DNA from: Apteryx mantelli | Lineage: Eukaryota | DNA: 64,000 nt | NCBI RefSeq assembly: GCF_036417845.1 | Contig: NC_090015.1 | Span: forward strand, 1-64,000 | Direction: 5' to 3' | In this document: positions 20,950-58,900 of the stretch, piece after piece | How positions within the stretch are numbered: position 1 is the first letter of the stretch | Layout: each line of letters starts with the position of its first letter | Notes under the pieces: model-generated | Told to the model about the DNA's origin: nothing | Databases searched by the model: none | What the model saw: the letters and a program-made list of their open reading frames with translations, nothing else | Program-made: the position numbers and the translations under genes

Positions 20950-21080
20950 TGGGGACGCCGTTGGGGACACGGGGGACGCGGCGGGGCGGCGGCGCGACCG
21001 CACGCGGGCCGTCACCTTCCGCGTGCCCCACAACGCCGCCATGCAGCTCTACGACTACCGGGAGCGGCGGGCGCGGTGAG
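20950..21080 (+). other. Copy of the exon-8 3' end plus donor (…[35 protein letters not shown]|gtgagcgggg), inside the intron-8 satellite
   Basis: About 125 nt identical to 19445-19575, including the gtgagc donor, but lacking the 5' two-thirds of the exon. Confidence 0.85.
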
Positions 21081-23444: not shown

Positions 23445-23575
23445 GGGACGCCGTTGGGGACACGGGGGACGCGGCGGGGCGGCGGCGCAACCGCACGCGG
23501 GCCGTCACCTTCCGCGTGCCCCACAACGCCGCCATGCAGCTCTACGACTACCGGGAGCGGCAGGCGCGGTGAGCG
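23445..23575 (+). other. Second copy of the exon-8 3' end plus donor, carrying two substitutions (D>N and R>Q)
   Basis: Same 125-nt block with cgcaaccgc and cggcaggcgcgg variants. The donor gtgagc lies at 23569. Confidence 0.85.
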
Positions 23576-27300: not shown

Positions 27301-28160
27301 GGGTGCGTGTGACCTGCGTGTGGGCCCGTGTGACCCCCGTGGGCGCGTGTAACACACGTGTGGGTGCGTGTGGGTGCGTGTGACCCATGTGTGGGTGCGT
27401 GTGACCGGCGCGTGGGTGCGTGTGGGTGCGTGTGACGTGGGTGTGGGTGCGTGTGGGTGCATGTGACATGCATGTGGGTGCGCGTGACCCCCGTGGGGTG
27501 ACCCCCGTGTCCCCCCCACCCACGCAAGGTGGTGCTGGGCCCCGAGCTGGCGCTGCTGGCGCCCGGCGAGCAGCCCACGGCGCCGTCCCTCTCCGGGGTG
27601 GGACGCGTGTGACCCCCGTGGGGACCCGCGTGGGTGCGTGTGACCCCCGTGGGGTGACCCCCGTGTCCCCCCCACCCACGCAGGGTGGTGCTGGGCCCCG
27701 AGCTGGCGCTGCTGGCGCCCGGCGAGCAGCCCACGGTGCTGTCCCTCTCCGGGGGGGGACGCGTGTGACCCCCGCGTGGGTGCGTGTGGGTGCGTGTGAC
27801 CCCCGTGGGGATGCGTGTGACCCCCGTGGGGTGACCCCCGTGTCCCCCGTGTCCCCACGCAGGGTGGTGCTGGGCCCCGAGCTGGCGCTGCTGGCGCCCG
27901 GCGAGCAGCCCACGGCGCCGTCCCTCTCCGGGGTGGGACACGTGTGACCCCCGTGGGGACCCGCGTGGGTGCGTGTGACCCCCGTGGGGTGACCCCCGTG
28001 TCCCCCGTGTCCCCACGCAGGGTGGTGCTGGGCCCCGAGCTGGCGCTGCTGGCGCCCGGCGAGCAGCCCACGGCGCCGTCCCTCTCCGGGGGGGGACGCG
28101 TGTGACCCCCGCGTGGGTGCGTGTGACCCCCGTGGGGTGACCCCCGTGTCCCCCGTGTCC
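24400..28160. repeat. GT-rich repeat of 9-30-bp units (gtgtgggtgcgtgtgacccacgtgtgggtgcgtgtgac), carrying the exon-9 junction copies near its 3' end
   Basis: Direct reading. The alternating purine-pyrimidine GT/GC character is evident. Confidence 0.9.
26530..28100 (+). other. Five truncated copies of the exon-9 acceptor plus its 5' 80 nt, starting at 26556, 27529, 27684, 27863 and 28021; they lie upstream of the real exon at 28169
   Basis: The string ccccacgcag|ggtggtgctgggccccgagctggcgctgctggcgcccggcgagcagcccacgg(c/t)gc(c/t)gtccctctccgggg recurs, with each copy diverging after ctctccgggg. The second copy has caag in place of cag. Confidence 0.85.
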
Positions 28161-31640: not shown

Positions 31641-33150
31641 AATGTCCCCAGAGCTCGAACCCCGTGATCTGCCCGGCCCTGTTCAGCTTCAGCGAGGCCC
31701 CATGTCCCCAATGTCCCCAATGTCCCCGACGTCCCCAATGTCCCTGATGTCCCCAATGCCCCCAATATCTCCAATGTCCCCGATGTCCCCAATGTCCCTG
31801 ATGTCCCTGATGTCCCCAATGTCCCCGACGTCCCCATCGTCCCTGATGTCCCCAATGCCCCCAATATCTCCAATGTCCCCGATGTCCCCAATGTCCCTGA
31901 TGTCCCTGATGTCCCCAACGTCCCTGATGTCCCCAATGCCCCCAATATCTCCAATGTCCCCGATGTCCCCAATGTCCCTGATGTCCCCGATGTCCCCAGA
32001 ACTCCAACCGGGTGATCTGCTCGGCCGTGTTCGGCTTCAACGAGGCCCCATGTCCCTAATGTCCCGTAATGTCCCCAATGCCCCGTAATGTCCCCGATGT
32101 CCCCAACATCCTCAATGTCCCCAATGTCCCCAACGTCCCCGATGTCCCCGACGTCCCCGCCGTCCCCAGAACTCCAACCGGGTGATCTGCTCGGCCGTGT
32201 TCGGCTTCGATGAGGCCCCGTGTCCATAATGTCCCGTAATGTCCCCAATGTCCCCAACATCCTCAATGTCCCCAATGTCCCCGATGTCCCTGATGTCCCT
32301 GACGTCCCCGCCGTCCCCAGAACTCCAACCGGGTGATCTGCTCGGCCACGTTCGGCTTCGACGAGGCCCCGTGTCCATAATGTCCCGTAATGTCCCCAAT
32401 GTCCCCAAGGTCCCCGACATCCCCAATGTCCCCGATGTCCTGACATCCCCGATGTCCCCAATGTCCCCGATGTCCCCAGAACTCCAACTGGGTGATCTGC
32501 TCGGCTGTGTTCGGCTTCGATGAGGCCCCGTGTCCCTAATGTCCTGTAATGTCCCCGATGTCCCAACGTCCCCAACGTCCCCAATGTCCTCAATGTCCCC
32601 AACATCCCTGATGTCCCCAACGTCCCTGATGTCCCCAGAACTCCAACCGGGTGATCTGCTCAGCCGTGTTCGGCTTCGACGAGGCCCCGTGTCCATAATG
32701 TCCCATGATGTCCCCAACATCCCTGATGGCCCTGATGTCCCCGACGTCCCTGATGTCCCCGATGTCCCTGATGTCCCCAACGTCCCTGCTGTCCCCAGAA
32801 CTCCAACCGGGTGATCTGCTCGGCCGTGTTCGGCTTCAACGAGGCCCCGTGTCCCTAATGTCCCATGATGTCCCCGATGTCCCCAACGTCCCTGATGTCC
32901 CCGATGTCCCCGACGTCCCCAACGTCCCCAGAACTCCAACCGGGTGATCTGCTCGGCCGTGTTCGGCTTCGACAAGACCCTATGTCCCTAATGTCCCGTA
33001 ATGTCCCCGATGTCCCGTAATGTCCCTGCTGTCCCCAACATCCTCAATGTCCCCAACGTCTCCGATGTCCCCGACATCCCTGATGTCCCCGATGTCCCCA
33101 GAACTCCAACCGGGTGATCTGCTCGGCCGTGTTCGGCTTCGACGAGGCCC
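31640..33150 (+). other. Nine copies of the exon-11 acceptor plus its 5' 50 nt (ccccag|aactccaaccgggtgatctgctcggccgtgttcggcttcgacgag), starting at 31652 (degenerate), 32000, 32170, 32321, 32480, 32639, 32799, 32932 and 33102
   Basis: Near-identical strings recur every 133-170 bp inside a higher-order repeat of 15-21-bp 'gatgtcccc' units. The copies continue gccccgtgtcc, whereas the real exon at 33253 continues ggcggccgcctgcgc. Confidence 0.85.
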
Positions 33151-40399: not shown

Positions 40400-41900
40400 G
40401 GGAGCCGGGGGGGGGGGCTGCTACGGTCCTGGGGACAACCAAGGAGGGGGGGGGGCTGGGTGTCCTGGGGGCACCCATGGGTGCTCCTGGGGGGGGTCCC
40501 CACCCCTAGGATGGGTGCTGGACACCCTGAAGACATCTAAGGTGGCTTCTAGGGGGTGGTCACCACCCCTAGGACACCCCGGGGTGGGTGCTGGACACCC
40601 TGAAGACATCTAAGGTGGCTTCTGGGGGGTGGTCACCACCACTAGGACACCCTGGGGTGGGTGCTGGGTGCCCTAGGGGCACCCGTGGGGGCTCCTGGGA
40701 GATGGTCACCACCCCAGGACGCTACAAGGTGGGTCCTAAGTACGCTGGGGGCACCCAAGGGTGCTCCTGGGGGATGGGCAACATCTTGAGGGCGCCCAAG
40801 GGTGCTCGTAGGAGACGCCCACCACCCTGAGAACAAGCAGATGTGCTCCTGGGAGGCCCTGGAGACACCTAAAGGTGCTTCTAGGAGACGGCCACCACCC
40901 TGGTGACACCCAAGGGTGCTCCTAGGAGACGACCACCACCCTGAGAACACCCAAAAGTGCTTCTAGGAGATGACTACCACCCTCGTGACACCCAAGGGTG
41001 CTCCTAGAAGATGGCCACCACCTTGAGAACACCCAAGGGTGCTCCCGGGAGATGGTCTTCACCCTTGTGACACCCAAGGGTGCTCCTAGAAGATGGCCAC
41101 CACCCTGAGGACACCCAAGGGTGCTCCTAGGAGATGGCCACCACCTTGAGAACACCCAAGGGTGCTCCCAGGAGACAACCACCACCCTGGTGACACCCAA
41201 GGGTGCTCCTAAAAGATGGCCACCACCCTGAGGACACCCAAGGGCGCTCCCAGGAGATGGCCACCACTCTGAGAACACCCAAGGGTGCTCCCAGGAGATG
41301 GCCACCACCCTGGTGACACCCAACAGTGCTCCTATGAGACGACCACCACCCTGGTGACACCCAAGGGTGCTCCTAAAAGATGGCCACCACCCTGATGACA
41401 CCCAGAGGAGCTCCTAGAAGATGGCCACCACCCTGAGAACACCCAAAAGTGCTTCTAGGAGATGACCACCACCCTGGTGACACCCCAGGGTGCTCCTATG
41501 AGATAACCACCACTCTGGTGACACCCCAGGGTGCTCCTAAGAGACGACCACCACCCTGGTGACACCCCAGGGTGCTCCTATGAGATAACTACCACTCTGG
41601 TGACACCCAAGGGTGCTCCTAGGAGATGGCCACCACTCTGGTGACACCCAAGGGTGCTCCTAAGAGACAACCACCACCCTGGTGACACCCCAGGGTGCTC
41701 CTAGGAGATGGCCACCACTCTGGTGACACCCAAGGGTGCTCCTAGGAGATGGCCACCACTCTGGTGACACCCAAGGGTGCTCCTAAGAGACAACCATCAC
41801 CCTGGTGACACCCAAGGGTGCTCCTAGGAGATGGCCACCACTCTGGTGACACCCAAGGGTGCTCCTATGAGATACCCACCACCCTGGTGACACCCCCATG
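40400..41900. repeat. Satellite of about 42-bp units (gtgacacccaagggtgctcctaggagatggccaccaccctg) repeated about 35 times, within the presumed TLCD3B 3'UTR
   Basis: Direct reading. Confidence 0.9.
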
Positions 41901-42032
41901 GCGGGTCCTGGTCACCCCAGACACCCCCCCCCCCTCCCCCAAACCAGGGCTACACCCCCCCCACCCCCACCCCACCCACACCCCACCTCGCACCCCGACG
42001 GGCGCCGCAGCACCCCGGGGTGCCGGGCGGCA

Positions 42033-42293
42033 TCAGGGAGGCGCCGGTGGGCGGAAGAGGCGCCAGGCGCCGCGGCAGATGAGGCCGAACCAGTAGAGCT
42101 GGGGGGCGAGGAGGGCGGCGGCGGCAGCGTTGTAGGCAGCAGGCAGCGCCGCCGGCACCCGCAGCAGCGGCAGCCCCGCGTGGCGCCCGTAGGCCCAGTA
42201 CAGGTAAGGGAAGAGCAGCACCCGGCACCCGAAGAAGGTCACCAGCATGGCCAAGCCGTTGAGCTTGTGCAGCGCCGTGTGTTGCCGCTTGTA
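42033..42293 (-). CDS. TLCD3B: TLCD3B (FAM57B) terminal coding exon ([86 protein letters not shown])
   Basis: Minus-strand translation aligns to the TLC-domain protein FAM57B/TLCD3B C-terminus '...[48 protein letters not shown]...[21 protein letters not shown]'. The minus-strand acceptor cag lies at plus 42294-42296. The frame matches ORF 42033..42317(-). Confidence 0.85.
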   Translation of the reverse strand, partial: [86 protein letters not shown]

Positions 42294-42339
42294 CTGCCGG
42301 GTGAAGAGGGGGGACAACGGGGGACGCGGTCAGCGCGTA

Positions 42340-42900
42340 GGGGGTGGCCGGGGTCACCTCTATGGTCTCCCGAGGGATCCTGGTGGCCGGGGACCCTGGT
42401 TCACCCCTATGTTCTCCTGAGGGACCCGGGTGTCTGGTGGCCCCGATCCATCCCTACGTCCTCCTGAGGGACCCAGGTGTCCGGGGATCCTGGTGTCTGG
42501 TGGCCCCGATCCATCCCTACGTCCTCCCGAGGGACCCAGGTGTCCGGGGACCCTGGTTCACCCCTATGTTCTCCTGAGGAACCCGGGTGTCTGGTGGCCC
42601 CGATCCATCCCTACGTCCTCCCGAGGGACCCAGGTGGCCGGGGATCCTGGTTCACCCCTATGTTCTCCTGAGGAACCCGGGTGTCTGGTGGCCCCGATCC
42701 ATCCCTACGTCCTCCTGAGGGACCCAGGTGGCCAGGGACCCTGGTTCACCCCTATGTTCTCCTGAGGGACCCGGGTGTCTGGTGGCCCCGATCCATCCCT
42801 ACGTCCTCCCGAGGGACCCAGGTGGCCGGAGACCCAAGTGACCAGTGGCCCCGATCCACCCCACGTCTTCCCAAGGGACCCAGGCGTCCGGGCCCCACCC
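42340..42900. repeat. Tandem repeat of about 46/92-bp units (ctggtggccccgatccatccctacgtcctcctgagggacccaggtgtccgg…ggttcacccctatgttctcctgag), in the last TLCD3B intron
   Basis: ORFs 42344.., 42430.. and 42477.. share peptides. Confidence 0.85.
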
Positions 42901-42936
42901 CGCCCTCCCCCCGAGGGGCCCAGGCGTCCGGCTCAC

Positions 42937-43032
42937 CAGGATGAGCACCTTGCCGAGGCAGACGAAGGGGGTGCTCAGCTCCGCCATGAGGAGGCAGCCC
43001 AAGAAGAAGTCGCCCTTGCCCTGGCGCCACAG
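42937..43032 (-). CDS. TLCD3B: TLCD3B coding exon ([32 protein letters not shown]); 96 bp, phase 0 at both ends; minus-strand donor gtgagc
   Basis: Aligns to FAM57B '[32 protein letters not shown]'. It is flanked by cag|ctg on the acceptor side and ctg|gtgagc on the donor side on the minus strand. Confidence 0.8.
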
Positions 43033-43039
43033 CTGGGGA

Positions 43040-43760
43040 CACGAGGGGGGACACGGGGGGACACGGGGGGGGACACGGGTCACACGGGGGGGGGACACGG
43101 ACACAGGTCACAAGGGGGAACAGGAGGACATGGGTCACATGACGTGGAGGACACCACCAGGACGTGGGGTGGCCTACCCGGGTTGCCCCCATCCCCACGG
43201 TGTCCCCAAGGTGTCCCCAACCCCCTCCCAACTCACGGAGGCCACAGGGAAGCAGAGCAGCACCGTGGTGGCCACCTCCTTGCCATGGTGGTGGCCTCCC
43301 ATCCCGTGTTCCCCAAGAGGTTCCTCCATCCCCGAGCCATCTCTGTCCCCATGGTGTCCCCAGCTGCTGTCCCCACTCGATGGGGAAGCAGACGAGGACC
43401 ATGGTGGCCACCACGAGCCCATCCTCGCCGACGTGGTGGCCACCCATCCCGTGTCTCCAAGAGGTTCCTCCGTCTCCAAGCCATGCTGGTGCCCCCAGGG
43501 TGTCCCCAACCCCCGTCCCCACTCATGGTGACCACGAGGACGCAGACGAGCACCACGGTGGCCACCACGAGAACGTCCCCGCCGAGGTGGTGGCCCCCCA
43601 ACGCCACGTCCCCAAGAAGGTTCCTCCGCCCCCCCCAAGCCCCGTCCCCACGGGGAAGCAGACGAGCACCACGGCGGCCACCACGAGACCATCCCCGCCA
43701 CGGTGGTGGCCCTCCATGCCACGTCCCCAAGAAGGTTCCTCCATCCCCGTCCCCTACTCA
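43040..43760. repeat. Tandem repeat of about 130-150-bp units derived from the TLCD3B exon end and donor
   Basis: See the TLCD3B copy feature above. Recurrent strings are gaagcagacgagcaccacgg(c/t)ggccaccacgag. Confidence 0.75.
43225..43700 (-). other. Four degenerate copies of the TLCD3B exon 3' end plus donor (…LVCFPVAA|gtgagt), in the adjacent intron at plus 43225-43290, 43355-43420, 43510-43580 and 43625-43700
   Basis: Minus-strand strings such as ctgctctgcttccctgtggcctccgtgagttgg, ctgcgtcctcgtggtcaccatgagtgggg and ctcgtctgcttccccgtggggacgg recur at a period of about 130-150 bp. Confidence 0.7.
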
Positions 43761-43761
43761 C

Positions 43762-43981
43762 GGCGGCCACGGGGAAGCAGACGAGCACCATGGCGGCGTG
43801 GTGGAGCACCATGAGCAGGTCCTTGCGGAGGTAGGCGGCGGCGGCGGCCCGCAGCGACGGCGGTGGCCCGGCCTCGTGGCCCTTGACGCGTCCCCGGTGC
43901 CAGTGGCAGAGGAACATGGCGTAGACGTCGTAGACGAAGTAGGGCACCGCGAACTCCGGGTAGGCGCCCGCCAGCCAGTGC
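43762..43981 (-). CDS. TLCD3B: TLCD3B coding exon (g-HWLAGAYPEFAVPYFVYDVYAMFLCHWHRGRVKGHEAGPPPSLRAAAAAYLRKDLLMVLHHAAMVLVCFPVAA); minus-strand donor gtgagt. The 5' (acceptor) boundary is uncertain
   Basis: Aligns to FAM57B 'QHWLSSAYTQFAVPYFIYDIYAMFLCHWH...YLHKEFLMVLHHAAMVLVCFP'. The conserved HH motif of the TLC domain is present. The open frame continues upstream into the 58-bp satellite, so I inferred the acceptor at 'acag|g' (plus 43981-43983). Confidence 0.65.
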
Positions 43982-43989
43982 CTGTCCCC

Positions 43990-46900
43990 AAAAATGACGT
44001 CAGGGGACCCAGGCGTCCGGGAGGGACCCAGGCGTCCGGGCAGGGACCCGGGTGTCCAGGGGACCCGGGTGTTTGGTGGCCTCGTGGCCACCATCTCCCC
44101 TGGTTTCACTCTACATCTGGGTCATCTTCAAGGGACCCAGGCGTCCGGGGAGACTCGTGTCACCTCTAGAGGGACCAGGCGTCCGGGAGGGGCCCAGGCG
44201 TCCGGGGAGTCTCGCGTCACCTCTAGGGGGACCCGGGCGTCCGGGAGGGGCCCAGGCGTCCGGGGAGTCTCGCGTCACCTCTAGGGGGACCCGGGCGTCC
44301 GGGAGGGGCCCAGGCGTCCGGGGAGCCTCGCGTCACCTCTAGGGGACCCGGGCGTCCGGGAGGGGCCCAGGCGTCCGGGGAGTCTCGCGTCACCTCTAGG
44401 GGGACCCGGGCGTCCGGGAGGGGCCCAGGCGTCCGGGGAGTCTCGCGTCACCTCCAGGGGGACCCGGGCGTCCGGGAGGGGCCCAGGCGTCCGGGGAGCC
44501 TCGCATCACCTCTAGGGGGACCCGGGCGTCCGGGAGGGGCCCAGGCGTCCGGGGAGTCTCGCGTCACCTCTAGAGGGACCCGGGCGTCCGGGAGGGGCCC
44601 AGGCGTCCGGGGAGTCTCGCGTCACCTCTAGAGGGACCCGGGCGTCCGGGAGGGGCCCAGGCGTCCGGGGAGTCTCGCGTCACCTCTAGGGGCACCCGGG
44701 CGTCCGGGAGGGGCCCAGGCGTCCGGGGAGTCTCGCGTCACCTCTAGGGGGACCCGGGCGTCCGGGAGGGGCCCAGGCGTCCGGGGAGTCTCGCGTCGCC
44801 TCTAGGGGGACCCGGGCGTCCGGGAGGGGCCCAGGCGTCCGGGGAGTCTCGCGTCACCTCTAGGGGGACCCGGGCGTCCGGGAGGGGCCCAGGCGTCCGG
44901 GGAGTCTCGCGTCACCTCTAGGGGGACCCGGGCGTCCGGGAGGGGCCCAGGCGTCCGGGGAGTCTCGCGTCACCTCTAGGGGGACCCGGGCGTGCTGGAG
45001 GGGCCCAGGCGTCCGGGGAGTCTCGCGTCGCCTCTAGGGGGACCCGGGCGTCCGGGAGGGGCCCAGGCGTCCGGGGAGTCTCGCGTCGCCTCTAGGGGGA
45101 CCCGGGCGTCCGGGAGGGGCCCAGGCGTCCGGGGAGCCTCGCGTCACCTCTAGGGGGACCCGGGCGTCCGGGAGGGGCCCAGGCGTCCGGGGAGCCTCGT
45201 GTCACCTCTAGGGGGGCCCGGGCGTCCGGGAGGGGCCCAGGCGTCCGGGGAGTCTCGCGTCACCTCTAGGGGGACCCGGGCGTCCGGGAGGGGCCCAGGC
45301 GTCCGGGGAGTCTCCTGTCACCTCTAGGGGCACCCGGGCGTCCGGGAGGGGCCCAGGCGTCCGGGGAGTCTCGCGTCACCTCTAGGGGACCCGGGCGTGC
45401 GGGAGGGGCCCAGGCGTCCGGGGAGTCTCGCGTCACCTCTAGGGGGACCCGGGCGTCCGGGAGGGGCCCAGGCGTCCGGGGAGCCTCGCGTCACCTCTAG
45501 GGGGACCCGGGCGTCCGGGAGGGGCCCAGGCGTCCGGGGAGTCTCGCGTCACCTCTAGAGGGACCCGGGCGTCCGGGAGGGGCCCAGGCGTCCGGGGAGC
45601 CTCGCGTCACCTCTAGAGGGACCCGGGCGTCCGGGAGGGGCCCAGGCGTCCGGGGAGTCTCGCGTCACCTCTAGGGGGACCCGGGCGTCCGGGAGGGGCC
45701 CAGGCGTCCGGGGAGTCTCGCGTCACCTCTAGGGGGACCCGGGCGTCCGGGAGGGGCCCAGGCGTCCGGGGAGTCTCGCGTCGCCTCTAGGGGGACCCGG
45801 GCGTCCGGGAGGGGCCCAGGCGTCCGGGGAGTCTCGCGTCACCTCTAGGGGGACCCGGGCGTCCGGGAGGGGCCCAGGCGTCCGGGGAGTCTCGCGTCAC
45901 CTCTAGGAGACCCGGGCGTCCGGGAGGGGCCCAGGCGTCCGGGGAGTCTCGCGTCACCTCTAGGGGGACCCGGGCGTCCGGGAGGGGCCCAGGCGTCCGA
46001 GGAGTCTGGCGTCACCTCTAGGGGGACCCGGGCGTCCGGGAGGGGCCCAGGCGTCCGGGGAGTCTCGCGTCACCTCTAGGGGGACCCGGGCGTCCGGGAG
46101 GGGCCCAGGCGTCCGGGGAGTCTCGCGTCACCTCTAGGGGGACCCGGGCGTCCGGGAGGGGCCCAGGCGTCCGGGGAGTCTCGCGTCACCTCTAGGGGGA
46201 CCCGGGCGTCCGGGAGGGGCCCAGGCGTCCGGGGAGTCTCGCGTCACCTCTAGAGGGACCCAGGTGTCCGGGAGGGGCCCAGGCGTCCGGGGAGTCTCGC
46301 GTCGCCTCTAGGGGGACCCGGGCGTCCGGGAGGGGCCCAGGCGTCCGGGGAGTCTCGCGTCACCTCTAGGGGGACCCGGGCGTCCGGGAGGGGCCCAGGC
46401 GTCCGAGGAGTCTGGCGTCACCTCTAGGGGGACCCGGGCGTCCGGGAGGGGCCCAGGCGTCCGGGGAGTCTCGCGTCACCTCTAGGGGGACCCGGGCGTC
46501 CGGGAGGGGCCCAGGCGTCCGGGGAGTCTCGCGTCACCTCTAGGAGACCCGGGCGTCCGGGAGGGGCCCAGGCGTCCGGGGAGTCTCGCGTCACCTCTAG
46601 AGGGACCCAGGCGTGCGGGAGGGGCCCAGGCGTCCGGGGAGTCTCGCGTCACCTCTAGAGGGACCCAGGCGTGCGGGAGGGGCCCAGGCGTCCGGGGAGT
46701 CTCGCGTCACCTCTAGGGGGACCCGGGCGTCCGGGAGGGGCCCAGGCGTCCGGGGAGTCTCGCGTCACCTCTAGGGGGACCCAGGTGTCCGAGAGGGGCC
46801 CAGGCGTCCGGGGAGTCTCGCGTCACCTTTACGGGGACCCAGGAGTCCGGGAGGGGCCCAGGCGTCCGGGGAGTCTCGCGTCGCCTCTAGGGGGACCCGG

Positions 46901-49900
46901 GTGTCCGGGAGGGGCCCAGGCGTCCGGGGAGGGGCCCAGGCGTCCGGGGAGTCTCGCGTCACCTCTAGGGGGACCCGGGCGTCCGGGAGGGGCCCAGGCG
47001 TCCGGGGAGTCTCGCGTCACCTCTAGGGGACCCGGGCGTCCGGGAGGGGCCCAGGCGTCTGGGGAGCCTCGTGTCACCTCTAGAGGGGCCCAGGCGTCCG
47101 GGGAGTCTGGCGTCACCTCTAGGGGGACCCGGGCGTCCGGGAGGGGCCCAGGCGTCTGGGGAGCCTCGTGTCACCTCTAGAGGGGCCCAGGCGTCCGGGG
47201 AGTCTGGCGTCACCTCTAGGGGGACCCGGGCGTCCGGGAGGGGCCCAGGCGTCTGGGGAGCCTCGTGTCACCTCTAGAGGGGCCCAGGCGTCCGGGGAGT
47301 CTGGCGTCACCTCTAGGGGGACCCGGGCGTCCGGGAGGGGCCCAGGCGTCCGGGGGGTCTCGCGTCACCTCTAGAGGGGCCCAGGCGTCCGGGGAGTCTG
47401 GCGTCACCTCTAGGGGGACCCGGGCGTCCGGGAGGGGCCCAGGCGTCTGGGGAGCCTCGTGTCACCTCTAGAGGGGCCCAGGCGTCCGGGGAGTCTCGCG
47501 TCACCTCTAGAGGGACCCGGGCGTCCGGGAGGGGCCCAGGCGTCCGGGGAGCCTCGCGTCACCTCTAGGGGGACCCGGGCGTGCGGGAGGGGCCCAGGCG
47601 TCCGGGGAGTCTCGTGTCACCTCTAGGGGGACCCAAGTGTCCGGGAGGGGCCCAGGCGTCCGGGGAGTCTCGCGTCACCTCTAGGGGGACCCGGGCGTGC
47701 GGGAGGGGCCCAGGCGTCCGGGGAGTCTCGCGTCACCTCTAGGGGGACCCGGGCGTGCGGGAGGGGCCCAGGCGTCCGGGGAGTCTCGTGTCACCTCTAG
47801 GGGGACCCGGGCGTCCGGGAGGGGCCCAGGCGTCCGGGGAGTCTCGCGTCACCTCTAGAGGGACCCGGGCGTCCGGGAGGGGCCCAGGCGTCCGGGGAGT
47901 CTCGTGTCACCTCTAGGGGGACCCGGGCGTCCGGGAGGGGCCCAGGCGTCCGGGGAGTCTCGCGTCACCTCTAGGGGGACCCGGGCGTCCGGGAGGGGCC
48001 CAGGCGTCCGGGGAGCCTCGCGTCACCTCTAGGGGGACCCGGGCGTCCGGGAGGGGCCCAGGCGTCCGGGGAGTCTCGCGTCACCTCTAGGGGGACCCGG
48101 GCGTCCGGGAGGGGCCCAGGCGTCCGGGGAGTCTCGCGTCACCTCTGGGGGGACCCGGGCGTCCGGGAGGGGCCCAGGCGTCCGGGGAGTCTCGCGTCAC
48201 CTCTAGAGGGGCCCAGGCGTCCGGGGAGTCTCGCGTCACCTCTGGGGGGACCCGGGCGTCCGGGAGGGGCCCAGGCGTCCGGGGAGTCTCGCGTCACCTC
48301 TAGGGGGACCCGGGCGTCCGGGAGGGGCCCAGGCGTCCGGGGAGCCTCGCGTCACCTCTAGGGGGACCCGGGCGTCCGGGAGGGGCCCAGGCGTCCGGGG
48401 AGTCTCGCGTCACCTCTAGGGGGACCCAGGCGTCCGGGAGGGGCCCAGGCGTCCGGGGAGTCTCGCGTCACCTCTAGGGGGACCCGGGCGTCCGGGAGGG
48501 GCCCAGGCGTCCGGGGAGTCTCGCGTCACCTCTAGGGGGACCCGGGCGTCCGGGAGGGGCCCAGGCGTCAGGGGAGTCTGGCGTCACCTCTAGGGGGACC
48601 CGGGCGTCCGCGAGGGGCCCAGGCGTCCGGGGAGCCTCGCGTCACCTCTAGGGGGACCCGGGCGTCCGGGAGGGGCCCAGGCGTCCGGGGAGTCTCGCGT
48701 CACCTCTAGGGGGACCCGGGCGTCCGGGAGGGGCCCAGGCGTCCGGGGAGTCTCGCGTCGCCTCTACGGGGACCCGGGCGTCCGGGAGGGGCCCAGGCGT
48801 CCGGGGAGTCTCGCGTCACCTCTAGAGGGACCCGGGCGTCCGGGAGGGGCCCAGGCGTCCGGGGAGTCTCGCGTCACCTCTAGGGGGACCCGGGCGTCCG
48901 GGAGGGGCCCAGGCGTCCGGGGAGCCTCGCGTCACCTCTAGGGGGACCCGGGCGTCCGGGAGGGGCCCAGGCGTCCGGGGAGTCTCGCGTCACCTCTAGG
49001 GGGACCCGGGCGTCCGGGAGGGGCCCAGGCGTCCGGGGAGTCTCGCGTCACCTCTAGGGGGACCCGGGCGTCCGGGAGGGGCCCAGGCGTCCGGGGAGCC
49101 TCGCGTCGCCTCTAGGGGGACCCGGGCGTCCGGGAGGGGCCCAGGCGTCCGGGGAGTCTCGCGTCACCTCTAGAGGGACCCGGGCGTCCGCGAGGGGCCC
49201 AGGCGTCCGGGGAGTCTCGCGTCGCCTCTAGGGGACCCGGGCGTCCGGGAGGGGCCCAGGCGTCCGGGGAGCCTCGCGTCACCTCTAGGGGGACCCGGGC
49301 GTCCGGGAGGGGCCCAGGCGTCCGGGGAGTCTCGCGTCACCTCTAGGGGGACCCGGGCGTCCGGGAGGGGCCCAGGCGTCCGGGGAGTCTCGCGTCACCT
49401 CTAGGGGGGCCCAGGCGTCCGGGGAGTCTCGCGTCACCTCTAGGGGGACCCGGGCGTCCGGGAGGGGCCCAGGCGTCCGGGGAGTCTCGCGTCACCTCTA
49501 GGGGGGCCCAGGCGTCCGGGGAGTCTCGCGTCACCTCTAGGGGGACCCGGGCGTCCGGGAGGGGCCCAGGCGTCCGGGGAGTCTCGCGTCACCTCTAGGG
49601 GGACCCAGGTTTCCGGGAGGGGCCCAGGCGTCCGGGGAGTCTCGCGTCACCTCTAGGGGGACCCGGGCGTCCGGGAGGGGCCCAGGCGTCCGGGGCATCT
49701 CGCGTCACCTCTAGGGGGACCCGGGCGTGCGGGAGGGGCCCAGGCGTCCGGGGAGTCTCGCGTCACCTCTAGGGGGACCCGGGCGTCCGGGAGGGGCCCA
49801 GGCGTCCGGGGAGTCTCGCGTCACCTCTAGGGGACCCGGGCGTCCGGGAGGGGCCCAGGCGTCCGGGGAGCCTCGCGTCACCTCTAGGGGGGCCCGGGCG

Positions 49901-52900
49901 TCCGGGAGGGGCCCAGGCGTCCGGGGAGTCTCGCGTCACCTCTAGGGGGACCCGGGCGTCCGGGAGGGGCCCAGGCGTCCGGGGAGTCTCGCGTCACCTC
50001 TAGGGGGACCCGGGCGTCCGGGAGGGGCCCAGGCGTCCGGGGAGTCTCGCGTCACCTCTGGGGGGACCCGGGCGTGCGGGAGGGGCCCAGGCGTCCGGGG
50101 AGTCTCGCGTCACCTCTAGGGGGACCCGGGCGTCCGGGAGGGGCCCAGGCGTCCGGGGAGTCTCGCGTCACCTCTAGGGGGACCCGGGCGTCCGAGGGGG
50201 GCCCAGGCGTCCGGGGAGTCTCGCGTCACCTCTAGGGGGACCCGGGCGTCCGGGAGGGGCCCAGGCGTCCGGGGAGCCTCGCGTCACCTCTAGGGGGACC
50301 CGGGCGTCCGGGAGGGGCCCAGGCGTCCGGGGAGTCTCGCGTCACCTCTAGGGGGACCCGGGCGTCCGGGAGGGGCCCAGGCGTCCGGGGAGCCTCGCGT
50401 CACCTCTAGGGGGACCCGGGCGTCCGGGAGGGGCCCAGGCGTCCGGGGAGTCTCGCGTCACCTCTAGGGGGACCCGGGCGTCCGGGAGGGGCCCAGGCGT
50501 CCGGGGAGCCTCGCGTCACCTCTAGAGGGGCCAGGCGTCCGCGGAGTCTCGCGTCACCTCTAGGGGACCCAGGTGTCCGGGGAGTCTCGTGTCATCTCTA
50601 GGGGACCCAGGTGTCCGGGGAGTCTCGTGTCACCTCTAGGGGGACCCGGGCGTCCGGGAGGGGCCCAGGCGTCCGCGGAGTCTCGCGTCACCTCTAGGGG
50701 ACCCAGGTGTCCGGGGAGTCTCGTGTCATCTCTAGGGGACCCAGGTGTCCGGGGAGTCTCGCGTCACCTCTAGGGGGACCCGGGCGTCCGGGAGGGGCCC
50801 AGGCGTCCGGGGAGTCTCGCGTCATCTCTAGGGGACCCAGGTGTCCGGGGAGTCTCGTGTCACCTCTAGGGGGACCCGGGCGTCCGGGAGGGGCCCAGGC
50901 GTCCGGGGAGTCTCGCGTCACCTCTAGAGGGACCAGGTGTCCGTGAGGGGCCCAGGTGTCCGGGAGGGGCCCAGGCGTCCGGGGAGCCTCGCGTCACCTC
51001 TAGGGGGACCCGGGCGTCCGGGAGGGGCCCAGGCGTCCGGGGAGTCTCGCGTCACCTCTAGAGGGACCCGGGCGTCCGGGAGGGGCCCAGGCGTCCGGGG
51101 AGTCTCGCGTCACCTCTAGGGGGACCCGGGCGTCCGGGAGGGGCCCAGGCGTCCGGGGAGTCTCGCGTCACCTCTAGGGGGACCCGGGCGTCCGGGAGGG
51201 GCCCAGGCGTCCGGGGAGTCTGGCGTCACCTCTACGGGGACCCGGGCGTCCGGGAGGGGCCCAGGCGTCCGGGGAGTCTCGCGTCACCTCTAGAGGGACC
51301 CGGGCGTCCGGGAGGGGCCCAGGCGTCCGGGGAGTCTCGCGTCACCTCTAGGGGGACCCGGGCGTCCGCGAGGGGCCCAGGCGTCCGGGGAGCCTCGCGT
51401 CACCTCTAGGGGGACCCGGGCGTCCGGGAGGGGCCCAGGCGTCCGGGGAGTCTCGCGTCACCTCTAGGGGGACCCGGGCGTCCGGGAGGGGCCCAGGCGT
51501 CCGGGGAGTCTCGCGTCACCTCTAGGGGGACCCGGGCGTCCGGGAGGGGCCCAGGCGTCCGGGGAGTCTCGCGTCACCTCTAGGGGGACCCGGGCGTCCG
51601 GGAGGGGCCCAGGCGTCCGGGGAGTCTCGCGTCACCTCTAGGGGGACCCGGGCGTCCGGGAGGGGCCCAGGCGTCCGGGGAGCCTCGCGTCACCTCTAGG
51701 GGGGCCCGGGTGTCCGGGAGGGGCCCAGGCGTCCGGGGAGCCTCGCGTCACCTCTGAGGGGACCCGGGCGTGCGGGAGGGGCCCAGGCGTCCGGGGAGCC
51801 TCGCGTCACCTCTAGGGGGACCCGGGCGTCTGGGAGGGGCCCAGGCGTCCGGGGAGTCTCGCGTCACCTCTAGGGGGACCCGGGCGTCCGGGAGGGGCCC
51901 AGGCGTCCGGGGAGTCTCGCGTCACCTCTAGGGGGACCCGGGCGTCCGGGAGGGGCCCAGGCGTCCGGGGAGTCTCGCGTCACCTCTAGGGGGACCCGGG
52001 CGTCCGGGAGGGGCCCAGGCGTCCGGGGAGTCTTGCGTCACCTCTAGGGGGACCCGGGCGTCCGGGAGGGGCCCAGGCGTCCGGGGAGCCTCGCGTCGCC
52101 TCTAGGGGGACCCGGGCGTCCGGGAGGGGCCCAGGCGTCCGGGGAGCCTCGCGTCACCTCTAGGGGCACCCGGGCGTCCGGGAGGGGCCCAGGCGTCCGG
52201 GGAGTCTCGCGTCACCTCTAGAGGGACCCGGGCGTCCGCGAGGGGCCCAGGCGTCCGGGGAGTCTCGCGTCGCCTCTAGGGGACCCGGGCGTCCGGGAGG
52301 GGCCCAGGCGTCCGGGGAGTCTCGCGTCACCTCTAGGGGGACCCGGGCGTCCGGGAGGGGCCCAGGCGTCCGGGGAGTCTCGCGTCACCTCTAGGGGGGC
52401 CCAGGCGTCCGGGGAGTCTCGCGTCACCTCTAGGGGGACCCGGGCGTCCGGGAGGGGCCCAGGCGTCCGGGGAGTCTCCTGTCACCTCTAGGGGGACCCG
52501 GGCGTCCGGGAGGGGCCCAGGCGTCCGGGGAGTCTCGCGTCACCTCTAGGGGGACCCGGGCGTCCGGGAGGGGCCCAGGCGTCCGGGGAGTCTCGCGTCA
52601 CCTCTAGGGGGACCCGGGCGTCTGGGAGGGGCCCAGGCGTCCGGGGAGTCTCGCGTCACCTCTAGGGGGCCCAGGCGTCCGGGAGGGGCCCAGGCGTCCG
52701 GGGAGTCTCGCGTCACCTCTAGGGGGACCCGGGCGTCCGGGAGGGGCCCAGGCGTCCGGGGAGTCTCGCGTCACCTCTAGGGGGACCCGGGCGTCCGGGA
52801 GGGGCCCAGGCGTCCGGGGAGTCTCGCGTCACCTCTAGAGGGACCCGGGCGTCCGGGAGGGGCCCAGGCGTCCGGGCAGTCTCGCGTCACCTCTAGGGGG

Positions 52901-55900
52901 ACCCGGGCGTCCGGGAGGGGCCCAGGCGTCCGGGGAGTCTCGCGTCGCCTCTAGGGGGACCCGGGCGTCCGGGAGGGGCCCAGGCGTCCGGGGAGTCTCG
53001 CGTCACCTCTAAGGGGACCCGGGCGTCCGCGAGGGGCCCAGGTGTCCGGGGAGTCTCGCGTCACCTCTGGGGGGACCCGGGCGTCCGGGAGGGGCCCAGG
53101 CGTCCGGGGAGTCTCGCGTCACCTCTAGGGGGACCCGGGCGTCCGGGAGGGGCCCAGGCGTCCGGGGAGTCTCGCGTCACCTCTAGGGGGACCCGGGCGT
53201 CCGGGAGGGGCCCAGGCGTCCGGGGAGTCTCGCGTCACCTCTAGGGGGGCCCAGGCGTCCGGGGAGTCTCGCGTCACCTCTAGGGGGACCCGGGCGTCCG
53301 GGAGGGGCCCAGGCGTCCGGGGAGTCTCCTGTCACCTCTAGGGGGACCCAGGTTTCCGGGAGGGGCCCAGGCGTCCGGGGAGTCTCGCGTCACCTCTAGG
53401 GGGACCCGGGCGTCCGGGAGGGGCCCAGGCGTCCGGGGCATCTCGCGTCACCTCTAGGGGGACCCGGGCGTGCGGGAGGGGCCCAGGCGTCCGGGGAGTC
53501 TCGCGTCACCTCTAGGGGACCCGGGCGTCCGGGAGGGGCCCAGGCGTCCGGGGAGTCTCGCGTCACCTCTAGGGGGACCCGGGCGTGCGGGAGGGGCCCA
53601 GGCGTCCGGGGAGTCTCGCGTCACCTCTAGGGGGCCCAGGCGTCCGGGAGGGGCCCAGGCGTCCGGGGAGTCTCGCGTCACCTCTAGGGGGACCCGGGCG
53701 TCCGGGAGGGGCCCAGGCGTCCGGGGAGTCTCGCGTCACCTCTAGGGGGACCCGGGCGTCCGGGAGGGGCCCAGGCGTCCGGGGAGTCTCGCGTCACCTC
53801 TAGGGGACCCGGGCGTCCGGGAGGGGCCCAGGCGTCCGGGGAGTCTCGCGTCACCTCTAGGGGGACCCGGGCGTCCGGGAGGGGCCCAGGCGTCCGGGGA
53901 GTCTCGCGTCACCTCTAGGGGGGCCCGGGCGTCCGGGAGGGGCCCAGGCGTCCGGGGAGTCTCGCGTCACCTCTAGGGGACCCGGGCGTCTGGGAGGGGC
54001 CCAGGTGTCCGGGGAGGGGCCCAGGCGTCCGGGGAGTCTCGCGTCACCTCTAGGGGACCCGGGCGTCCGGGAGGGGCCCAGGCGTCCGGGGAGCCTCGCG
54101 TCACCTCTAGGGGGACCCGGGCGTCCGGGAGGGGCCCAGGCGTCCGGGGAGTCTCGCGTCACCTCTAGGGGGACCCGGGCGTCCGGGAGGGGCCCAGGCG
54201 TCCGGGGAGTCTCGCGTCACCTCTAGGGGGACCCGGGCGTCCGGGAGGGGCCCAGGCGTCCGGGGAGTCTCGCGTCACCTCTAGGGGGACCCGGGCGTCC
54301 GGGAGGGGCCCAGGCGTCCGGGGAGTCTCGCGTCACCTCTAGGGGGACCCGGGCGTCCGGGAGGGGCCCAGGCGTCCGGGGAGTCTCGCGTCACCTCCGG
54401 GGGGACCCGGGCGTGCGGGAGGGGCCCAGGCGTCCGGGGAGTCTCGCGTCACCTCTAGGGAGACCCGGGCGTCCGGGAGGGGCCCAGGCGTCCGGGGAGT
54501 CTCGCGTCACCTCTAGGGGGACCCGGGCGTCCGGGAGGGGCCCCAGGCGTCCGGGGAGTCTCGCGTCACCTCTGGGGGGACCCGGGCGTCCGGGAGGGGC
54601 CCAGGCGTCCGGGGAGTCTCGCGTCACCTCTAGGGGGACCCGGGCGTCCGGGAGGGGCCCAGGCGTCCGGGGAGTCTCGCGTCACCTCTAGGGGGACCCG
54701 GGCGTCCGGGAGGGGCCCAGGCGTCCGGGGAGTCTCGCGTCACCTCTAGGGGGACCCGGGCGTCCGGGAGGGGCCCAGGCGTCCGGGGAGCCTCGCGTCA
54801 CCTCTAGGGGACCCGGGCGTCCGGGAGGGGCCCAGGCGTCCGGGGAGTCTGGCGTCACCTCTAGGGGGACCCGGGCGTCCGGGAGGGGCCCAGGCGTCCG
54901 GGGAGTCTCGCGTCACCTCTAGGGGGACCCGGGCGTGCGGGAGGGGCCCAGGCGTCCGGGGAGTCTCGCGTCACCTCTAGGGGGACCCGGGCGTCCGGGA
55001 GGGGCCCAGGCGTCCGGGGAGTCTCGCGTCACCTCTAGGGGGACCCGGGCGTCCGCGAGGGGCCCAGGCGTCCGGGGAGTCTCGCGTCACCTCTAGGGGA
55101 CCCGGGCGTCCGGGAGGGGCCCAGGCGTCCGGGGAGTCTGGCGTCACCTCTAGGGGGACCCGGGCGTCCGGGAGGGGCCCAGGCGTCCGGGGAGTCTCGC
55201 GTCACCTCTAGGGGGACCCGGGCGTCCGGGAGGGGCCCAGGCGTCCGGGGAGTCTCGCGTCACCTCTAGGGGGACCTAGGAGTCCGGGAGGGGCCCAGGC
55301 GTCCGGGGAGTCTCCTGTCACCTCTAGGGGGACCCGGGCGTCCGGGAGGGGCCCAGGCGTCCGGGCAGTCTCGCGTCACCTCTAGGGGGACCCGGGCGTC
55401 CGGGAGGGGCCCAGGCGTCCGGGGAGCCTCGCGTCACCTCTAGGGGGACCCGGGCGTGCGGGAGGGGCCCAGGCGTCCGGGGAGCCTCGCGTCACCTCTA
55501 GAGGGACCCGGGCGTCCGGGAGGGGCCCAGGCGTCCGGGGAGCCTCGCGTCACCTCTAGGGGACCCGGGCGTGCGGGAGGGGCCCAGGCGTCCGGGGAGT
55601 CTCGCGTCACCTCTAGGGGGACCCGGGCGTCCGGGAGGGGCCCAGGCGTCCGGGAGGGGCCCAGGCGTCCGGGGAGCCTCGCGGTCACCTCTAGGGGGAC
55701 CCGGGCGTCCGGGAGGGGCCCAGGCGTCCGGGGAGCCTCGCGTCACCTCTAGGGGGACCCGGGCGTCCGGGAGGGGCCCAGGCGTCCGGGGAGTCTCGCG
55801 TCACCTCTAGGGGGACCCGGGCGTCCGGGAGGGGCCCAGGCGTCCGGGGAGTCTCGCGTCACCTCTAGGGGGACCCGGGCGTCCGGGAGGGGCCCAGGCG

Positions 55901-58900
55901 TCCGGGGAGTCTCGCGTCACCTCTAGGGGGACCCGGGCGTCCGGGAGGGGCCCAGGCGTCCGGGGAGTCTCGCGTCGCCTCTAGGGGGACCCGGGCGTCC
56001 GGGAGGGGCCCAGGCGTCCGGGGAGTCTCGCGTCACCTCTAGGGGGACCCGGGCGTCCGGGAGGGGCCCAGGCGTCCGGGAGGGGCCCAGGCGTCCGGGG
56101 AGCCTCGCGTCACCTCTAGGGGGACCCGGGCGTCCGGGAGGGGCCCAGGCGTCCGGGGAGCCTCGCGTCACCTCTAGGGGGACCCGGGCGTCCCGGAGGG
56201 GCCCAGGCGTCCGGGGAGTCTCGCGTCACCTCTAGGGGGACCTGGGCGTCCGGGAGGGGCCCAGGCGTCCGGGGAGTCTGGCGTCACCTCTAGGGGGACC
56301 CGGGCGTGCGGGAGGGGCCCAGGCGTCCGGGGAGTCTCGCGTCACCTCTAGGGGGACCCGGGCGTCCGGGAGGGGCCCAGGCGTCCGGGAGGGGCCCAGG
56401 CGTCCGGGGAGCCTCGCGTCACCTCTAGGGGGACCCGGGCGTCCGGGAGGGGCCCAGGCGTCCGGGGAGCCTCGCGTCACCTCTAGGGGGACCCGGGCGT
56501 CCGGGAGGGGCCCAGGCGTCCGGGGAGTCTCGCGTCGCCTCTAGGGGGACCCGGGCGTGCGGGAGGGGCCCAGGCGTCCGGGGAGTCTCGCGTCACCTCT
56601 AGGGGGACCCGGGCGTCCGGGAGGGGCCCAGGCGTCCGGGAGGGGCCCAGGCGTCCGGGGAGCCTCGCGTCACCTCTAGGGGGACCCGGGCGTCCGGGAG
56701 GGGCCCAGGCGTCCGGGGAGTCTCGCGTCACCTCTAGGGGGACCCGGGCGTCCGGGAGGGGCCCAGGCGTCCGGGGAGGCTGGCGTCACCTCTAGGGGGA
56801 CCCGGGCGTCCGGGAGGGGCCCAGGCGTCCGGGGAGCCTCGCGTCACCTCTAGGGGGACCCGGGCGTCCGGGAGGGGCCCAGGCGTCCGGGGCGTCTCGC
56901 GTCAACTCTGGGGGGACCCGGGCGTGCGGGAGGGGCCCAGGTGTCCGGGGAGTCTCGCGTCACCTCTAGGGGGACCCAGGTGTCCGGGAGGGGCCCAGGC
57001 GTCCGGAGGGGCCCAGGCGTCCGGGGAGTCTCGCGTCACCTCTAGGGGGACCCAGGCGTCCGGGAGGGGGCCCAGGCGTCCGGGAGGGGCCCAGGCGTCC
57101 GGGGAGTCTCGCGTCACCTCTAGGGGGACCCGGGCGTCCGGGAGGGGCCCAGGCGTCCGGGGAGTCTCGCGTCACCTCTAGGGGACCCGGGCGTCCGGGA
57201 GGGGCCCAGGCGTCCGGGGAGTCTCGCGTCACCTCTAGGGGGACCCGGGCGTCCGGGAGGGGCCCAGGCGTCCGGGGAGTCTCGCGTCACCTCTAGGGGG
57301 ACCCGGGCGTCCGGGAGGGGCCCAGGCGTCCGGGGAGTCTCGCGTCACCTCTGGGGGGACCCGGGCGTCCGGGAGGGGCCCAGGCGTCCGGGGAGTCTCG
57401 CGTCACCTCTAGGGGGACCCGGGCGTCCGGGAGGGGCCCAGGCGTCCGGGGAGTCTCGCGTCACCTCTAGGGAGGGACCCGGGCGTCCGGGAGGGGCCCA
57501 GGCGTCCGGGGAGCCTCGCGTCACCTCTAGAGGGACCCAGGTGTCCGGGAGGGGCCCAGGCGTCCGGGGAGTCTCGCGTCACCTCTAGGGGGACCCGGGC
57601 GTCCGGGAGGGGCCCAGGCGTCCGGGGAGCCTCGCGTCACCTCTAGGGGGACCCGGGCGTCCGGGAGGGGCCCAGGCGTCCGGGGAGTCTCGCGTCACCT
57701 CTAGAGGGACCCGGGCATCCGGGAGGGGCCCAGGCGTCCGGGGAGCCTCGCGTCACCTCTAGAGGGACCCAGGTGTCCGGGAGGGGCCCAGGTGTCCGGG
57801 GAGTCTCGCGTCACCTCTAGAGGGACCTGGGCGTCCCGGAGGGGCCCAGGCGTCCGGGGAGTCTCGCGTCACCTCTAGAGGGACCCGGGCATCTGGGAGG
57901 GGCCCAGGCGTCCGGGGAGTCTCGCGTCACCTCTAGGGGGACCCGGGCGTCCGGGAGGGGCCCAGGCGTCCGGGGAGTCTCGCGTCACCTCTAGAGGGAC
58001 CAGGTGTCCGGGAGGGGCCCAGGTGTCCGGGAGGGGCCCAGGCGTCCGGGGAGTCTCGCGTCACCTCTAGGGGGACCCGGGCGTCCGGGAGGGGCCCAGG
58101 CGTCCGGGGAGTCTCGCGTCACCTCTAGGGGGACCCGGGCGTCCGGGAGGGGCCCAGGCGTCCGGGGAGTCTCGCGTCACCTCTAGGGGGACCCGGGCGT
58201 CCGGGAGGGGCCCAGGCGTCCGGGGAGTCTCGCGTCACCTCTAGGGGGACCCGGGCGTCCGGGAGGGGCCCAGGCGTCCGGGGAGTCTGGCGTCACCTCT
58301 AGAGGGACCCGGGCGTCCGGGAGGGGCCCAGGCGTCCGGGGAGTCTCGCGTCACCTCTGGGGGGACCCGGGCGTCCGGGAGGGGCCCAGGCGTCCGGGGA
58401 GCCTCGCGTCACCTCTAGGGGGACCCGGGCGTCCGGGAGGGGCCCAGGCGTCCGGGGAGTCTCGCGTCACCTCTGGGGGGACCCGGGCGTCCGGGAGGGG
58501 CCCAGGCGTCCGGGGAGTCTCGCGTCACCTCTAGGGGGACCCGGGGCGTCCGGGAGGGGCCCAGGCGTCCGGGGAGTCTCGCGTCACCTCTGGGGGGACC
58601 CGGGCGTCCGGGAGGGGCCCAGGCGTCCGGGGAGTCTCGCGTCACCTCTAGGGGGACCCGGGCGTCCGGGAGGGGCCCAGGCGTCCGGGGAGTCTCGCGT
58701 CACCTCTAGGGGGACCCGGGCGTCCGGGAGGGGCCCAGGCGTCCGGGGAGTCTCGCGTCACCTCTAGGGGGACCCGGGCGTCCGGGAGGGGCCCAGGCGT
58801 CCGGGGAGTCTCGCGTCACCTCTAGGGGGACCCGGGCGTCCGGGAGGGGCCCAGGCGTCCGGGGAGTCTCGCGTCACCTCGAGGGGCACCCGGGCGTGCG

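Follow-up and report, generated by a model that had tools for sequence, protein, structure and literature searches.

TLCD3B exons A and B and the intron between them

The window analysed here (the whole stretch of DNA, 64 kb in length) carries MVP on the plus strand and part of TLCD3B (FAM57B) on the minus strand. TLCD3B exon A lies at 43762..43986 on the minus strand and was delimited by translation, Pfam and homologues. It encodes DRHWLAGAYPEF...HHAAMVLVCFPVAA and ends in phase 0; its translation (43986-43762, minus strand) is DRHWLAGAYPEFAVPYFVYDVYAMFLCHWHRGRVKGHEAGPPPSLRAAAAAYLRKDLLMVLHHAAMVLVCFPVAA, and its 3′ end reads ...MVLVCFPVAA|GTGAGT. The authentic 5′ splice site is the GTGAGT at 43756..43761 on the minus strand (9-mer GCC|GTGAGT), and splicing from it to exon B (42937..43040, minus strand, ending ...VLIL|gtgagc) restores the conserved junction. 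The last coding exon of the gene is found at approximately 42293-42036 (minus strand), and the N-terminal exons are absent from the 64-kb window. The peptide encoded by exons A and B together matched the Pfam TLC domain PF03798 (E = 2.9e-12) and was 91-97% identical to bird TLCD3B/FAM57B proteins. In the homologue alignment the protein join CFPV(AA)|LWRQGKGDF is kept from fish to mammals, and all vertebrate homologues join CFPV(xx) directly to LWRQGKGDF. The first-pass annotation had assigned the gene to TLCD3B and placed the exon end at this donor, and the Pfam match, the homologue identity and the conserved join bear out both assignments. They also indicate that the coding exon is unaltered, as the A-B join gives continuous TLC-domain sequence.

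The intron between exons A and B is 729 nt long in the window and contains about 68-69% G+C, with 39% G on the sense strand. At its exon B side an 11-12/22-nt repeat of the ccccccgtgt type on the sense strand (43035..43100, minus strand, from TRF rows) forms the pyrimidine tract before exon B, and this repeat is purely intronic material. When the exons of the window were compared with their adjacent introns by blastn, no copies of exon B were found.

Two further observations concern the gene structure. In gene models of kiwi, tinamou, chicken, ground finch and owl the exon-end residues AA/AT are missing; such models would agree with a GT lying six bases further upstream, CCC|GTGGCC (43767-43762, minus strand), which may be either a tandem alternative donor or an alignment-driven annotation choice. 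In addition, a motif of ~18 nt, GGGNCCCAGGCGTCCGGG, builds repeats in different TLCD3B introns (42354-42931, 44004-44057 and 44131-64000). These repeats include a 58/174-bp satellite upstream of exon A, which was followed by TRF to 62381, with the motif running onward to the end of the window.

Copies of the exon A junction form a tandem array

Repeats in the introns of chicken dot-chromosome genes have been termed sequence stuttering (Hron et al., Genome Biol Evol 2026, PMC12954441; preprint 10.1101/2025.09.16.676548, September 2025). In exon stuttering, a subset of it, the neighbouring intron contains repeated copies of a lateral part of an exon, along with its donor or acceptor, and the exon itself is unchanged (PMC12954441). 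In the TLCD3B intron between exons A and B we identified an exon-stutter array of five imperfect tandem units of 116-154 bp (43201..43797, minus strand), based on TRF, unit alignment and self-blastn. Exon A contributes its final 36-66 nt, and with them the real donor, to the first unit. Anchors of the CTGCTTCCC type are found at plus-strand positions 43780 (the true junction), 43661, 43545, 43391 and 43255, spaced by 119, 116, 154 and 136 bp (mean 131). TRF reported the stretch 43511-43797 with a period of 116, 2.4 copies and 81% matches, and this is the best-preserved part of the array; self-alignment by blastn (offsets 119, 271 and 415) widens it to 43201-43797. Aligned over both their exon-derived and their intronic parts, the five units show 62-82% pairwise identity.

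To score the copies we used ungapped matching of a 42-nt junction probe, made of the last 36 bases of exon A and GTGAGT. Copies 1-4 matched the probe at 34, 35, 28 and 36 of 42 positions, respectively. Elsewhere in the 64-kb window, on both strands, no match to this probe exceeded 26/42, and the best match per shuffle, over 1000 dinucleotide-preserving shuffles of the intron, averaged 21.6 and never exceeded 26. A 25-mer search allowing up to 3 mismatches gave four hits where none was expected. By blastn copy 1 reached 52.7 bits, over the published threshold of 42.1 bits, which is the shuffled-control maximum for blastn of exons against adjacent introns (PMC12954441); copies 2-4 were below blastn detection and were obtained by nhmmer with E-values of 1.4e-6 to 2.9e-3. 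The feature is real and is not due to chance. About four degenerate copies with a period of 130-150 bp had been claimed for this intron by the first-pass annotation. We indeed found four, at 28-36/42 against the shuffle maximum of 26, and the period agrees with the mean spacing, with single spacings of 116-154 bp; the string quoted as an example was located where it had been placed, at 43255-43228.

The alignment of all four copies continues across the last base of the exon and into the GTGAGT position, and the copies differ in what became of the donor. Copy 1 (43637..43678, minus strand; 34/42), in which the exon part is 97% identical over 31 nt, had its donor taken out by a deletion of ~12-13 nt (…CCCCGTGG^GGACGGGG). 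In copy 2 (43521..43562, minus strand; 35/42) the donor is dead by a G to A change at +1 (CACC|ATGAGT), and in copy 3 (43367..43408, minus strand; 28/42 ungapped, with a deletion inside) 8 nt comprising the exon-derived end and the GT were removed (…CCCCATCGAGTGGGG). Copy 4 (43231..43272, minus strand; 36/42) is the only one with an intact GTGAGT, at 43236-43231, within the 9-mer TCC|GTGAGT. The GT donor was thus retained in one of the four intronic copies, and the three others lost it through three different lesions. The earlier description of the copies as exon end plus donor needs this one qualification. No acceptor accompanies any of the copies, which begin inside the exon. The donor of copy 4 lies 525 nt (175 codons) downstream of the real donor, in frame, and the sequence between the two (43761-43237, minus strand) is free of stops.

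The copies are restricted to the intron between exons A and B, as seen in the 64-kb scan. Three G-quadruplex-type motifs were found on the sense (minus) strand, at 43629-43649, 43492-43520 and 43204-43229, each just 3′ of a junction copy, where 0.39 were expected from 500 composition-preserving shuffles (maximum 3). A search of 41900-44300 with Rfam 15 reported only mir-598, at 42108-42162, outside the array, with 20.9 bits against a gathering threshold of 69.

Exon-edge copies in MVP introns and the regional pattern

We surveyed the region by comparing the window with itself under the published criterion, a blastn hit of more than 42.1 bits in the adjacent intron. MVP exons were placed with a human MVP sequence, which served for exon location only. 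Exon-edge copies were detected in four MVP introns and in one TLCD3B intron, five of roughly 17 introns in the window. All four MVP arrays are on the plus strand. The first (3100-5221) contains four copies of an acceptor and exon start upstream of the exon at about 5653, and the second (20941-23569) two copies of a 136-nt exon end with its donor downstream of 19570. In the remaining two the acceptor side was copied again, with 74 nt of exon in five copies upstream of 28167 (26555-28092) and with 40 nt in eight copies upstream of 33260 (32006-33147). Donor-side and acceptor-side edges are therefore both hit, and in genes of opposite strands (MVP plus, TLCD3B minus).

Identity of the MVP copies to their exons is 91-100%, and with a single exception the inspected copies keep an intact acceptor (..CAG|) or donor (G|GTGAGC). 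As nearly all the inspected copies keep their splice signals, MVP contains many potential decoy splice sites. The MVP arrays are much younger than the TLCD3B array. Exon-edge copying as a property of the region is supported by these results, and the proposal of the first-pass annotation that the phenomenon is regional and not a matter of MVP alone fits the five introns. The GC content of the window varies between 59 and 78%, and TRF returned 197 rows scoring at least 150 across the 64 kb, which consist almost entirely of tandem repeats. In chicken the neighbouring genes PPP4C and ALDOA are listed on dot chromosome 38 (chr38; PMC12954441). The composition and these chicken neighbours suggest a dot-chromosome location for the window.

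The same intron in other birds and in a snake

We compared the intron with orthologous loci of six fetched birds, Pygoscelis adeliae (penguin, L001), Stercorarius parasiticus (skua, L002), Columba guinea (pigeon, L003), Anser cygnoides (goose, L004), Manacus candei (manakin, L005) and Limosa lapponica (godwit, L007), which together with the window make seven birds, and with one non-avian locus, that of the snake Notechis scutatus (L006). Copies were counted by nhmmer and blastn with the junction probe; except for the manakin, each count contains the authentic junction as well. All seven birds had copies of this exon end in the intron that follows it, with ten junction-probe hits in goose, six in penguin, four in skua, three each in godwit and pigeon, at least two in manakin and five in the window. 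In the snake, in which the orthologous intron is 152 nt long, only the true junction was found and no copy. The intron measures 729 nt in the window, 366 in godwit, 606 in skua, 1045 in penguin, 1143 in goose and 3294 in pigeon. Of the exon, the copies hold 36 nt in the window and as much as about 66 nt in the other birds.

The copies carry bases that set them apart from the exons. At three columns all bird exons have C/T/C, and most of the intronic copies of goose, penguin and skua have G/A/G; a GT to GG change at the donor position is also common to most copies. In a neighbour-joining (NJ) tree the copies of penguin, skua and godwit group by position (bootstrap 74, 79 and 87), and the introns of these three species align colinearly. 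In the same tree, goose, pigeon, manakin and the window each have their copies in a cluster of their own. Window copies 1-3 cluster together (bootstrap 96) and share a 9-nt deletion that is absent from the other birds; the window copies share only one of the 3-4 derived bases that mark the neognath copies.

Traces of further events were seen in individual species. In goose the block 166-726, which extends from the last ~60 nt of the exon through the fifth unit, has been re-duplicated at an offset of 570, and CCACCAC divides the new junction copy into a 5′ part of the intronic type and a 3′ part that matches the exon. We considered whether an identical 47-nt core in goose was a sign of selection or of short-tract conversion, and rejected this on the full block alignment, which shows a fairly recent duplication of ~570 bp; as this block is highly similar throughout except for indels, the identity of the core needs no special explanation. 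In pigeon the intact copy and the exon junction of the species share a pigeon-only intron sequence, GTGAGTCTGGGGACATGGGGAC, and the two manakin copies have GTCGCCACCGTGAGC in common. The pigeon intron (L003 6051-9340), 3.3 kb long, is filled by a repeat with a period of ~143 bp (self-alignment offsets 143, 279, 332...), and compared with the 366 nt of godwit this amounts to a roughly nine-fold variation in length between species.

Origin and age of the array

The copies are derived from the exon, with the direction of copying running from exon to intron. Because the junction is conserved in vertebrates, the snake intron is free of copies and every bird has them, the exon is the source and the structure is avian. 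Since goose, penguin and skua copies share bases unlike those of every bird exon, the founding duplication is probably older than the split between goose and Neoaves (Galloanserae–Neoaves), a date that is partly shown and partly inferred. The G/A/G columns and the GT to GG change point to one founder copy with a dead donor that would have been amplified before this split. As judged by tree and alignment, the individual copies of penguin, skua and godwit are orthologous by position. The clustering by species in goose, pigeon, manakin and the window indicates, on the same kind of evidence, lineage-specific re-amplification. The window array and the neognath array are likely to be of common origin, which is less than firm for the window lineage because copies 1-3 share the 9-nt deletion and only one derived base.

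Two other explanations bear on whether the array is real and old. The similarity might have arisen by chance from GC-rich, low-complexity sequence, the explanation that the first-pass annotation had itself named as the one that would overturn its claim, and the intron is indeed 68% G+C and G-rich, in a window full of simple repeats. We regard this as having practically no probability. Against matches of 34-36/42, neither the 1000 dinucleotide shuffles nor the remainder of the window gave more than 26, the 25-mer search gave four hits with none expected, the copies keep register at a period of 116-154 bp that includes non-exonic unit sequence, and the same pattern recurs in six independent assemblies of other birds. 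A weightier, although still unlikely, explanation is that the array arose recently and independently in a kiwi-like lineage, its likeness to the arrays of other birds reflecting a recurrent hotspot at the same junction. The clustering of window copies 1-3 (bootstrap 96), their deletion missing in other birds and the presence of just one of the 3-4 derived bases marking neognaths all speak for it, as does the published finding that the repeat structure of orthologous introns varies between related species (PMC12954441). It is countered by the recurrence of copies of this exon edge in one and the same intron of all seven birds, by the positional orthology of copies across penguin, skua and godwit, and by the identity between units of only 62-82%, far under the 91-100% of MVP copies to their exons. 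Given this difference in identity the array is not young, and the positional orthologues and shared derived bases in the same intron of other birds make it old rather than recent. The first-pass annotation had attributed the copies to local repeat dynamics. This holds at the regional level, but the TLCD3B array is not simply a product of the current repeat turnover of the genome, because it is old, present in every bird examined and far more decayed than the MVP arrays.

Comparison with known systems

In chicken, exon stuttering was reported for 115 genes. Of the 236 introns affected, 190 belong to dot chromosomes; the exon part measured 20-187 bp (median 36), the copies numbered 1-44 (median 4), and in over 90% of cases no more than 1 base separated the source from the exon border (PMC12954441). 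Extensive intron-length polymorphism among individuals is one of three features stressed in that study, and on the evidence of other introns the repeats were seen as recent and independently expanded in individual species (PMC12954441). TLCD3B, FAM57B and MVP are not named in its text or text-form supplements, the list of 115 genes being partly in the form of images (PMC12954441). At the level of sequence the TLCD3B array agrees with exon stuttering in every defining feature. It has an exon part of ~36 nt or more with a splice site, four copies spaced by 116-154 bp that all lie between exons A and B, and units of tens to hundreds of bp; the exon is intact, the DNA is GC-rich, tandem-repeat-saturated bird DNA, and several introns of neighbouring genes are hit. 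It differs from the published cases in the species and in being decayed and common to distant birds, which share it by position or by derived bases. The family of GGGNCCCAGGCGTCCGGG repeats spans several introns, whereas the stuttering paper (PMC12954441) stresses a single-intron pattern.

The array also resembles GC-rich minisatellites (VNTRs), with which it has in common tandem units of ~100-150 bp in G-rich sequence, signs of unequal exchange (the goose chimeric block) and the sharing of variants within species (pigeon and manakin). Unlike them, its end unit is anchored in a selected coding exon and would so be able to re-seed the array, and the units of penguin, skua and godwit are positional orthologues that have not been homogenised. 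Tandem exon duplication likewise involves local tandem duplication of exonic sequence within a gene, but in TLCD3B only the 3′ 36-66 nt were copied, with no acceptor and, in three of the four copies, no donor. As the acceptor is absent and three copies are without a donor, the array holds no complete alternative exon, and a complete duplicated (mutually exclusive) exon was rejected on these grounds. Tandem or cryptic alternative 5′ splice sites share with the array a duplicated donor with the same intronic consensus in the same intron. The putative second donor of TLCD3B differs from these in lying 525 nt away rather than a few nucleotides and in a frame that is not conserved.

Proposed mechanism

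We consider it very probable that the array is a case of exon stuttering, in other words of sequence stuttering at an exon edge, as known from genes on avian dot chromosomes. A segment running from the last ~40-65 nt of exon A across the 5′ splice site and ~60-100 nt into the intron would have been tandemly duplicated into the intron and then re-amplified, giving an imperfect minisatellite in which the first unit is the real exon junction, maintained by selection. The driving process would be misaligned homologous exchange between units, by unequal crossing-over, non-crossover gene conversion or replication template switching, in a compartment rich in GC and G4 motifs where recombination is high. 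The conserved exon may act as a permanent template that re-seeds fresh copies with a working donor, while older copies decay. The copies would have no function of their own, those with a working donor being potential decoy splice sites whose decay is possibly aided by selection.

We infer misaligned exchange as the mechanism from the structure of the arrays. It may take place in meiosis, as unequal crossover or non-crossover conversion, or during replication, as template switching where the DNA is G4-rich. The chimeric copy of goose is what would be expected if the exon copy and an intronic copy downstream of it had undergone unequal exchange. The authors who named stuttering also offered only speculation about its mechanism (PMC12954441). 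The three independent donor-killing lesions in the window may hint at selection; the loss of the copy 2 donor alone has a chance probability of ~0.3 by our own calculation (7 mismatches in 42).

Possible use of the copy 4 donor

The donor at 43236-43231 might serve as an alternative or decoy 5′ splice site that is regenerated in birds because it is useful, either in an isoform with a 175-residue in-frame insert or through U1 titration that tunes TLCD3B splicing. The 9-mer TCC|GTGAGT is near the real GCC|GTGAGT, the 525 nt between the donors are in frame with no intervening stop, one intronic copy with an intact donor is also present in goose, penguin and pigeon and at least one in manakin, and a goose GenBank gene model splices from the duplicated donor. 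Against these points, the penguin frame has stops at +111, +177 and +243 before the second donor and the goose frame has one at +33, the second donor of pigeon is out of frame, and skua and godwit are without an intact second donor. At 69% GC open stretches are frequent, and the other two frames of this intron have only 2-3 stops in 729 nt; all vertebrate homologues join the two exons straight at CFPV(xx) and LWRQGKGDF; and the goose model, with its start within the intron, has the appearance of an annotation artefact. Taken together, we find such a regulatory or coding use very improbable. A related proposal, which we also hold to be highly doubtful, is that the exon-anchored array is long-lived and self-renewing and that its donors, re-seeded time and again from the exon junction by unequal exchange, act in splicing as alternative or decoy sites (in the window through the 175-codon extension) before being purged by selection. 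If true, it would explain the loss of the donor in three window copies by three different lesions, and stuttering would then be more than neutral, recent instability, namely a recurrent splice-site competition on dot-chromosome genes lasting for tens of millions of years.

Two specific candidates were tried and rejected. A conserved alternative coding extension is incompatible with the absence of the open frame in penguin, goose and pigeon, the open frame of the window being regarded as an effect of GC composition. A recursive splice site (YnAG|GTRAGT) was rejected on the sequence of the intact copy, CCTCC|GTGAGT, in which no AG precedes the GT.

Implications for annotation and for the evolution of stuttering

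Duplicated exon ends with splice signals mislead gene models. Two models from these loci are examples. The goose GenBank model P0033 (L004 8001-8252) begins in intronic repeats (MAMRTDVLMEVHHAVVGFSVV...) and uses a duplicated donor 570 nt downstream of the real donor, which may be either an annotation artefact of the stutter or a hint that a duplicate donor is used. The Apteryx owenii UniProt model P0002 translates intron on both sides of the two exons, and its intron read-through matches the window at 44094-43987 and 42936-42916 nearly exactly, almost residue for residue. On this match the window appears to come from Apteryx, the kiwi genus, or from a near relative.

Taken alone, the TLCD3B array is an ordinary example of a recently named and already published phenomenon. 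What goes beyond the literature is its deep, partly positional conservation across birds, together with the chimeric duplication in goose that involves the exon copy. A stutter array can thus persist at one junction across distant bird orders. This qualifies the published reading of the expansions as recent and species-specific, as at least some arrays are old and partly orthologous, and it makes the TLCD3B intron a small, alignable locus for the rates of unit gain, unit loss and splice-site decay.
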